From: Haplodiscus bocki
Taxonomy: Eukaryota
Length of the DNA stretch: 64,000 nucleotides
NCBI GenBank assembly: GCA_965655095.1
Contig: OZ296650.1
Span: 62,868,001-62,932,000 of the forward strand
Direction: 5' to 3'
In this document: positions 44,362 through 44,935 of the stretch, piece after piece
Layout: every line of letters begins with the position of its first letter
How positions within the stretch are numbered: the first letter of the stretch is position 1
Translations under genes and position numbers: made by a program
Notes under the pieces: generated by a model
Told to the model about the DNA's origin: nothing
The model's database searches: none
The model's input: the letters and a program-made list of their open reading frames with translations, nothing else

Positions 44362-44935
44362 TCAAGGGGGCGGATTTTGCAGTAACCCTACAAAAGCTAA
44401 CTTGCGAGCAGTGCACATATGGGTTAATCTTCTTTTTGTTTCTTCGTCCTTATCATACTCTTCAGCAATTATCAAATTTTCATTCAATGGATTGCTGGGC
44501 CATTTTGGTAAAAAAAGTTTCACACAAATTTCAATGTGTCCAAATATGTGAATTATGTAAGTCAATACCTTTGTCCATTCGAGTTTGACTAATCCACACC
44601 CAATTTGCGGTAAGCTAATTTCTGTTATTCCGTGTTCTAACATGTGACTTCTCATTCTACATAGGCTTTCATGTAAATTTTGGTATGTAGGCTTATCATT
44701 GCCGTGCTGTTTTATCACTGAGTTATATATCCAGTTCTGTCGTTGTTGAGAGAAATATGCTATAAGAGAACCTGGCGGTGAAACATTTTTCTTTGTCGAA
44801 TGTCGTTCAAATCAGGGAACAATCTCAAAAATTGTGTAGCTATGCCTGCTGCCATTACTAAATCAGATGATACGCAATGTCCAAAATTAGTGTTAGGGTT
44901 TTCGAACAGATCTCCTTGTAAAATTTCAATATTTG
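44362..44935 (-). pseudogene. TARG1/OARD1 (Poa1p-like) macrodomain at the Pol C-terminus, split by one frameshift near 44790
   Basis: IEILQGDLF...FGHCVSSDLVMAAGIATQF...GSLIAYF...WIYNSVIK...KPTYQNLHESLCRMRSHMLEHGITEISLPQIGCGLVKLEWTKV. Confidence 0.92.

Follow-up and report, generated by a model that had tools for sequence, protein, structure and literature searches.

A TARG1-class macrodomain at the end of Pol in Ty3/Gypsy retrotransposons of Haplodiscus bocki, conserved in the family and broken in the window copy

Introduction

Viral macrodomains counter PARP defence. The conflict between PARPs and macrodomains is established for RNA viruses and, with DarTG, for phages; to our knowledge it has hardly been explored for retrotransposons.

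Macrodomain ORFs have been reported in teleost epsilon-like endogenous retroviruses (ERVs) (Basta et al. 2009, as cited in PMC4977317), which are thus retroelements with a captured macrodomain, like the element analyzed here. Those are vertebrate retroviruses whose macrodomain is described as an additional ORF, whereas our element belongs to the Ty3/Gypsy group and carries a domain of the TARG1 class in its Pol frame. Capture of chromatin readers and enzymes by transposons is common (bioRxiv 2021.11.30.470311). The env-carrying Ty3/Gypsy elements, or errantiviruses in the wide sense, and the chromoviruses resemble our element in their LTRs, gag, PR-RT-RH-IN pol, env-like gene and extra domain C-terminal to the integrase (PMC13524379); that extra domain is a chromodomain, whereas here it is a catalytic-type macrodomain. 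The terms "macro," "ADP" and "JmjC" are absent from the main text of PMC13524379. In the open full-text literature, mostly judged by title and abstract, we found no paper on a TARG1-class domain in a Gypsy Pol; the supplements of PMC13524379 and bioRxiv 2021.11.30.470311 may list such fusions.

The catalytic dyad of TARG1 consists of Lys84 and residue 125 (PMC7050489), the latter being printed as Glu125 in that source and appearing as Asp in the PDB chain. TARG1 substrates include modified proteins and ADP-ribosylated nucleic-acid ends (PMC7050489), and thymidine ADP-ribosylation is reversed by TARG1 but not by the inactive K84A variant (PMC8501950).

A decayed Ty3/Gypsy element with a macrodomain in its Pol frame

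The window, i.e., the whole 64-kb stretch of DNA that was analyzed, contains a decayed LTR retrotransposon of 15.2 kb on the minus strand, with an env-like gene (Table 1). Its Pfam and LTR matches place protease, RT, RNase H and integrase in this order between two LTRs, which is the Ty3/Gypsy order. Directly after the 5′ LTR comes a sequence that starts with TGG, and the 3′ LTR is preceded by a run of purines. No clear target-site duplication was identified at the element ends, and no tRNA gene was found within the window.

The pol frame is broken towards the integrase, the next piece being located at 47054-47617. A frame of 779 aa (47099-44760, minus strand) then encodes Integrase_H2C2 and rve, followed by the Pro/Glu/Ser-rich linker and the N-terminal half of a macrodomain, with the landmarks GDLF at 44915, HCVSSD at 44879 and MAAGIA at 44855. 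The C-terminal half (IYNSVIK...KPTY...PQIGCGLV) is carried by a second frame (44811-44362, minus strand). An earlier note on this DNA had placed the macrodomain in the Pol frame after the integrase; the 779-aa frame shows this arrangement, and a sister family has it in one open frame. In Pfam searches the C-terminal half of the window copy scored 21.6 bits for Macro, just under the cut-off of 22, and the N-terminal half had no match. No chromodomain match was obtained in the integrase ORF of the window element, nor in the ENA protein P0250, a single chain that combines RT, RNase H, integrase and Macro.

Outside the element, positions 1-27000 of the window display periodic GC and AT skew, suggesting that a long tandem array lies upstream of it, and terminal inverted repeats of approximately 200 bp located 3 kb apart at 57259-60473 probably delimit a DNA transposon.

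Table 1. Features of the Ty3/Gypsy element in the window
Feature	Position	Strand	Evidence or remark
5′ LTR	51918..52832 (ends approximate)	-	919-column match to 3′ LTR, 98.15% identity
gag-like ORF, 400 aa	50177..51379	-	ORF, position, and homologue at equivalent place in divergent family; Pfam search without match
pol: protease, weak dUTPase-like match, RT, RNase H	47395..50163	-	Pfam: RVT_1 1e-19, RT_RNaseH 1e-13, protease 6.5e-4, dUTPase 0.037
Integrase zinc-binding and core domains	46383..46883	-	Pfam: Integrase_H2C2 2e-15, rve 1e-7
Pro/Glu/Ser-rich linker, ~280 aa, sharing the frame of integrase and macrodomain	44985..45835	-	ORF and copy comparison
F-Q-[LF]-N-[QM]-hydrophobic motif upstream of macrodomain, putative protease cleavage site	44967..44984	-	
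TARG1-class macrodomain, N-terminal part (GDLF, HCVSSD, MAAGIA)	44783..44935	-	
Frame break of window copy, T tract	44779..44783	-	
TARG1-class macrodomain, C-terminal part	44506..44778	-	Lys84-equivalent 44710-44712 kept; Asp125-equivalent 44587-44589 = Val
C-terminal tail, ~48 aa, after macrodomain, end of Pol	44362..44505	-	
Small accessory ORF, orphan paralogous set	43868..44167	-	
JmjC-like antisense ORF, 419 aa, H-x-E and distal His	41686..42945	+	
env-like gene, interrupted by stop	38895..41042	-	
3′ LTR	37642..38560 (ends approximate)	-	pairwise match to 5′ LTR, 98.15% identity

The macrodomain belongs to the TARG1/OARD1 class

For the class assignment, we used a sibling copy with a natural, open macrodomain frame (L004) rather than the window copy. 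Its best matches among solved structures were all human OARD1/TARG1 (E value of 6e-28), DarG-type PDB entries being far weaker (5e-5 and 1e-4), and it scored 25.1 bits for Pfam Macro against the cut-off of 22. The E value to OARD1/TARG1 and the above-threshold Pfam score argue that the match is not due to chance. A structure model based on 50 aligned TARG1-like sequences reached a pLDDT of 93.5; the single-sequence fold was poor (pLDDT 50.8) and was not used. In a Foldseek search with the model, TARG1 occupied ranks 1 to 8 (TM 0.84-0.89), followed by DarG, and superposition on PDB 4j5s gave a TM score of 0.89 and an rmsd of 1.5 Å for 38% identity. The E value and the TM score of this sibling copy thus uphold the TARG1/OARD1 class that had been proposed from the window alone.

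Human TARG1 (OARD1, C6orf130; PDB 4j5s and 4j5r), an ALC1-like hydrolase, has in common with the element domain the fold, the HC-S-D, TK..KPTY and P-IGCGLD motifs, and the Lys/Asp dyad found in members of the element family. In the TARG1 chain, 41 residues separate the aligned Lys from the aligned Asp, in agreement with positions 84 and 125. Unlike human TARG1, the element domain comes last among the domains of a retrotransposon Pol and is followed by a 48-aa tail, and the window copy of it is broken. The bacterial antitoxin DarG belongs to the same class, has the catalytic Lys and provides the next-best fold matches (TM 0.82-0.85), but it is only 22-23% identical to the element domain. The retained Lys/Asp dyad makes hydrolase activity of the element macrodomain likely.

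Close fold matches were also obtained with a CRESS-DNA virus and with invertebrate RNA viruses, including negev-, virga- and flavi-like viruses and VP8 of Kadipiro virus (TM 0.77-0.88, 23-34% identity). These RNA viruses have a similar macrodomain fold, but neither reverse transcription nor integration. A TARG1-type macrodomain is also present near the N terminus of a Logan protein of 1,716 aa (P0091) that has no Pfam match and that, judging by its appearance, may be a dsRNA-virus capsid polyprotein.

The window copy is a pseudogene in a family that keeps the dyad

A DNA search of the 1.5-Gb host genome yielded 191 candidates, the best 40 of which were scored, and we compared 30 loci including the window. 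The Lys84 equivalent is retained in all 30, the window included, as the earlier note had read it. Among these 30 loci of the 191 candidates, the position equivalent to Asp125 is Asp in 26, Glu in 2 and Asn in 1, and the single Val is that of the window, also correctly reported. The note had overlooked that the Thr residue directly before the catalytic Lys, present in 28/30 loci, is replaced by Ile in the window. Of the 29 other copies, 19 have an open frame from the N-terminal to the C-terminal half, 5 stay in frame but contain stop codons, 4 are shifted and 1 is unaligned. Asp and a continuous macrodomain frame thus represent the family norm.

The interruption of the window copy had been ascribed to a 1-nt slip in an A run. 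The frame break itself stood up to the comparison of copies, but not its location, as the A run is five nucleotides long in 18/30 loci including the window. The break maps to a short T tract just 3′ of the A run (approximately 44779-44783), whose length differs from that of the window in 27 of the 29 other copies. We considered a programmed frameshift inside the macrodomain and rejected it because the break is nearly private to the window copy. Both the frame break and the Val in place of Asp125 reflect decay of a single copy rather than the state of the family, and the window copy, from which Asp125 and the open frame are both absent, is a pseudogene.

In the linker, the frame is uninterrupted in the window copy and in 8 others; of the remaining copies, 8 stay in frame but contain stop codons, 12 are shifted and 1 is unaligned. 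The shifts are scattered over different positions among the copies, and we therefore read them as ordinary decay of single copies. The possibility that the family encodes its macrodomain in a frame separate from that of integrase was rejected, both because of this scatter and because sister families have one open frame. Most copies of the window family have stops or frameshifts somewhere in Pol. The tail after the KW landmark is 47 aa long in 26/30 loci. At L022-L023, the linker-macrodomain region is duplicated in tandem (1.73 kb).

The fusion is shared with related families and under apparent purifying selection

A sister family in the host genome has several uninterrupted Pol frames of 1,923 aa ending in the macrodomain, and the LTRs of the copy examined are 99.8% identical. 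Lys and Asp were both read in 11 of its 12 loci, the remaining one not being parsed; as the loci of the sister family and of the second clade described below are top matches of TARG1-like queries, their residue counts lean towards conservation. Between the window family and the sister family, the integrase core is 88% and RT 89% identical. The macrodomain is 62% identical, with pN of 0.24, pS of 0.70 and dN/dS of ~0.14, compared with ~40% identity and dN/dS of ~0.31 for the linker and 48% identity and dN/dS of ~0.26 for the C-terminal tail, each ratio coming from one pair of copies per region with synonymous sites near saturation.

In a more distant family, with 70% identity in RT, 59% in integrase and 38% in the macrodomain, the latter is still located after the integrase. 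Six after-integrase macrodomains form one clade (support 100/99), and that of P0088, a family without the C-terminal tail, lies beside it on a long branch. These comparisons argue that the macrodomain fusion is old and kept under purifying selection. Our verdict from the sequences is that the macrodomain is real and most probably functional at the level of the family, and dead in the window copy.

A second, distant Gypsy clade carries a TARG1-class domain before integrase

We searched the host genome with frog OARD1, which gave 5,784 first-look candidates (not a copy count); the best 150 were scored and 30 were examined. One of these is a TARG1-like gene outside transposable elements (TEs), and the other 29 belong to a second Gypsy clade in which the TARG1-class domain is located between RNase H and integrase. 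Both neighboring domains are found with it in one open stretch in 21/29 loci, and Lys and Asp are present in 29/29 and 28/29, respectively. The two clades are 25% identical in RT-RNase H and 35-43% in the macrodomain. The second clade is present in high copy number and contains many open Pol frames of 1,580 aa (L096 3506-8248, L064-L092), and young copies with open 1,923-aa and 1,580-aa Pol frames have LTRs that are 99.8-99.9% identical. Macrodomains in retroelements being already known from fish ERVs, what is new is this second, distant Gypsy clade with TARG1 between RNase H and integrase.

The element macrodomains are only 36-45% identical to the non-TE TARG1-like gene of the host. The deep nodes of the macrodomain trees are without resolution, and approximately unbiased (AU) tests rejected neither a single origin of the domains of both clades (p = 0.097), nor the grouping of the element domains with the host gene (p = 0.209), nor that of P0088 with the rest (p = 0.097). 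These tests thus establish neither the donor nor the number of captures. Domains at different Pol positions in distant backbones still call for either separate captures or a transfer from one element to another. At L099, two neighboring non-TE TARG1-like ORFs on the minus strand (5341-6327 and 7589-8815) are candidate host genes; in the second, a single frame covers just the C-terminal part of the domain.

A junction-like motif precedes the macrodomain

The TARG1 class also occurs at other positions in Pol, before the protease as well as between RNase H and integrase. Within the two clades of the host genome it adjoins the integrase, either after or directly before it. The sequence [ILVF]-N-x-hydrophobic occurs eight times in the sister-family Pol: four occurrences are located at the borders of protease, RT and integrase, one lies approximately 15 residues before the macrodomain, three are inside folded domains and none is in the linker. 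The pre-macrodomain motif, in the form F-Q-[LF]-N-[QM]-hydrophobic, aligns in 5/6 rows, and the sixth row has a similar motif nearby. Such junction motifs are presumably protease sites, judging by known Ty3/Gypsy site patterns. The motif suggests that the element protease cuts the macrodomain free from integrase. If this reading is right, the mature product is predicted to be a free protein of approximately 200 aa rather than an appendage of integrase. In the earlier note, the domain packaged with Pol could strip ADP-ribose from the pre-integration complex or target chromatin, an action that is hypothetical. The upstream motif, the presence of the class elsewhere in Pol and its presence in RNA viruses without integration together argue against a strictly integrase-tethered role.

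Possible functions of the captured domain

We propose that the macrodomain, kept under purifying selection at the end of the Pol frame, is a captured eraser that counters host PARP defence, a reading to which we give a probability of about one half in view of its recurrence in mobile elements and viruses. As a part of Pol, the domain would be packaged with it; the element protease may then release it from integrase at the motif described above; and an enzyme with this dyad, likely to be active on ADP-ribose, would probably remove the ADP-ribose placed by host PARPs on element proteins, RNA or cDNA ends. The kept dyad argues for an eraser, and the variable Pol position and the fold matches in invertebrate RNA viruses argue for a job independent of integrase. 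The host genome has 31 PARP-domain matches; any animal would be expected to have such a repertoire, which is no demonstration of a use against transposons. ADP-ribosylation is tied to retrotransposon silencing in mammals through SIRT6, KAP1 and L1 (PMC4695847). The dyad, the variable position, the RNA-virus matches, the host PARPs and the SIRT6-KAP1-L1 link lead us to favor counter-defence over the three other accounts.

An active eraser might instead serve repair of the integration site, by clearing PARP1 signaling or ADP-ribose caps at gapped ends so that host ligation proceeds; the domain would then help the element rather than counter a defence. DNA repair at integration would give equal conservation, the macrodomain adjoins integrase in both clades of the host genome, and, among cellular TARG1-type domains, several come fused to DNA ligase III/BRCT domains. 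However, the same class is found before the protease and in RNA viruses that have no integration step, the upstream motif suggests release from integrase, and most Gypsy elements, as far as we know, integrate without a macrodomain. Thus, we consider this account unlikely, even though TARG1 interacts with PARP1, relocalizes on DNA damage and reverses DNA ADP-ribosylation (PMC7050489, PMC8501950).

The domain could also be a reader fused to integrase that, in the manner of a chromodomain, would tether integration to chromatin marked with ADP-ribose or to DNA breaks. Its location C-terminal to integrase is that of the chromodomain in chromoviruses and some errantiviruses (PMC13524379), and the ALC1-like class includes readers (PMC7050489). 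Nearly all copies of three groups have kept the catalytic Lys and Asp, residues that a pure reader could do without, and the junction-like motif separating the macrodomain from integrase and its variable position among clades also speak against tethering, which makes a reader somewhat less likely still. A neutral passenger, i.e., a host cDNA fragment picked up recently and without a role for the element, might account for a window copy broken at two key places and for the stops or frameshifts in the Pol of most family copies, but it is hardly credible given a macrodomain that stays in frame even between families at 38% identity, the dN/dS of ~0.14 between the window and sister families, the open 1,923-aa and 1,580-aa Pol frames of young copies with nearly identical LTRs (99.8-99.9%), and the 36-45% identity to the host gene.

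One genome holds two distant Gypsy clades, both active in recent times, that keep a catalytic-type TARG1 domain under selection, which makes it directly testable whether ADP-ribosylation restricts retrotransposons and at which step. The few domains found where integrase can carry a chromodomain are also joined by an enzyme.

Additional cargo between pol and the 3′ LTR

The antisense ORF had an Atlas feature score of 0.96, and 10/10 of its best named matches share a family or clan (JmjC/cupin); Pfam gave no JmjC match, and a PDB sequence search was negative. Its identity as a JmjC protein is thus a lead. A distant family has a 51% identical ORF at the equivalent place and in the same orientation, with pN of 0.34 versus pS of 0.76, in which the H-x-E and distal His motif is conserved. 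The host genome contains 15 near-full-length close matches to the ORF, which is unbroken in the window and split in 14/14 other close copies examined; the sister-family copy examined does not have the gene.

Two or three small paralogous orphan ORFs of approximately 100 aa are located between pol and env (the one in Table 1 and ~43442-43606 on the minus strand in the window; L093 6904-8346), a position in which they resemble the accessory genes of complex retroviruses. The ORF listed in Table 1 is 52% identical to a sister-family ORF. The three accessory ORFs of that family are 26-31% identical to each other, and an Atlas search with one of them found no credible match. The env-like gene, for which a Pfam search gave no match, is 76% identical to a 779-aa ORF of the sister family and is conserved in three families. 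By eye, it has a basic cleavage-like motif, a hydrophobic peptide and a C-terminal hydrophobic stretch, as in fusion proteins.

A broader scenario is conceivable, though we regard it as doubtful: the host would use ADP-ribosylation as a front-line defence against retrotransposons, two distant Gypsy clades would each have captured a TARG1 eraser, and the env-bearing clade would have added the antisense JmjC-like oxygenase and orphan accessory genes, making up a multi-enzyme kit that erases host marks. No description of such a kit in LTR retrotransposons was found in the literature searched.

The arrangement of this region differs among loci. At L014, env closely follows pol, approximately 1.2 kb downstream of the macrodomain and without the JmjC-like insert, and L033-L035 contain tandem 3.56-kb repeats holding the JmjC-like region. 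Finally, a 7.3-kb element with identical 651-bp LTRs (L102-L103), in which only JmjC-like and env-like genes and neither gag nor pol were detected, looks like a young non-autonomous derivative.
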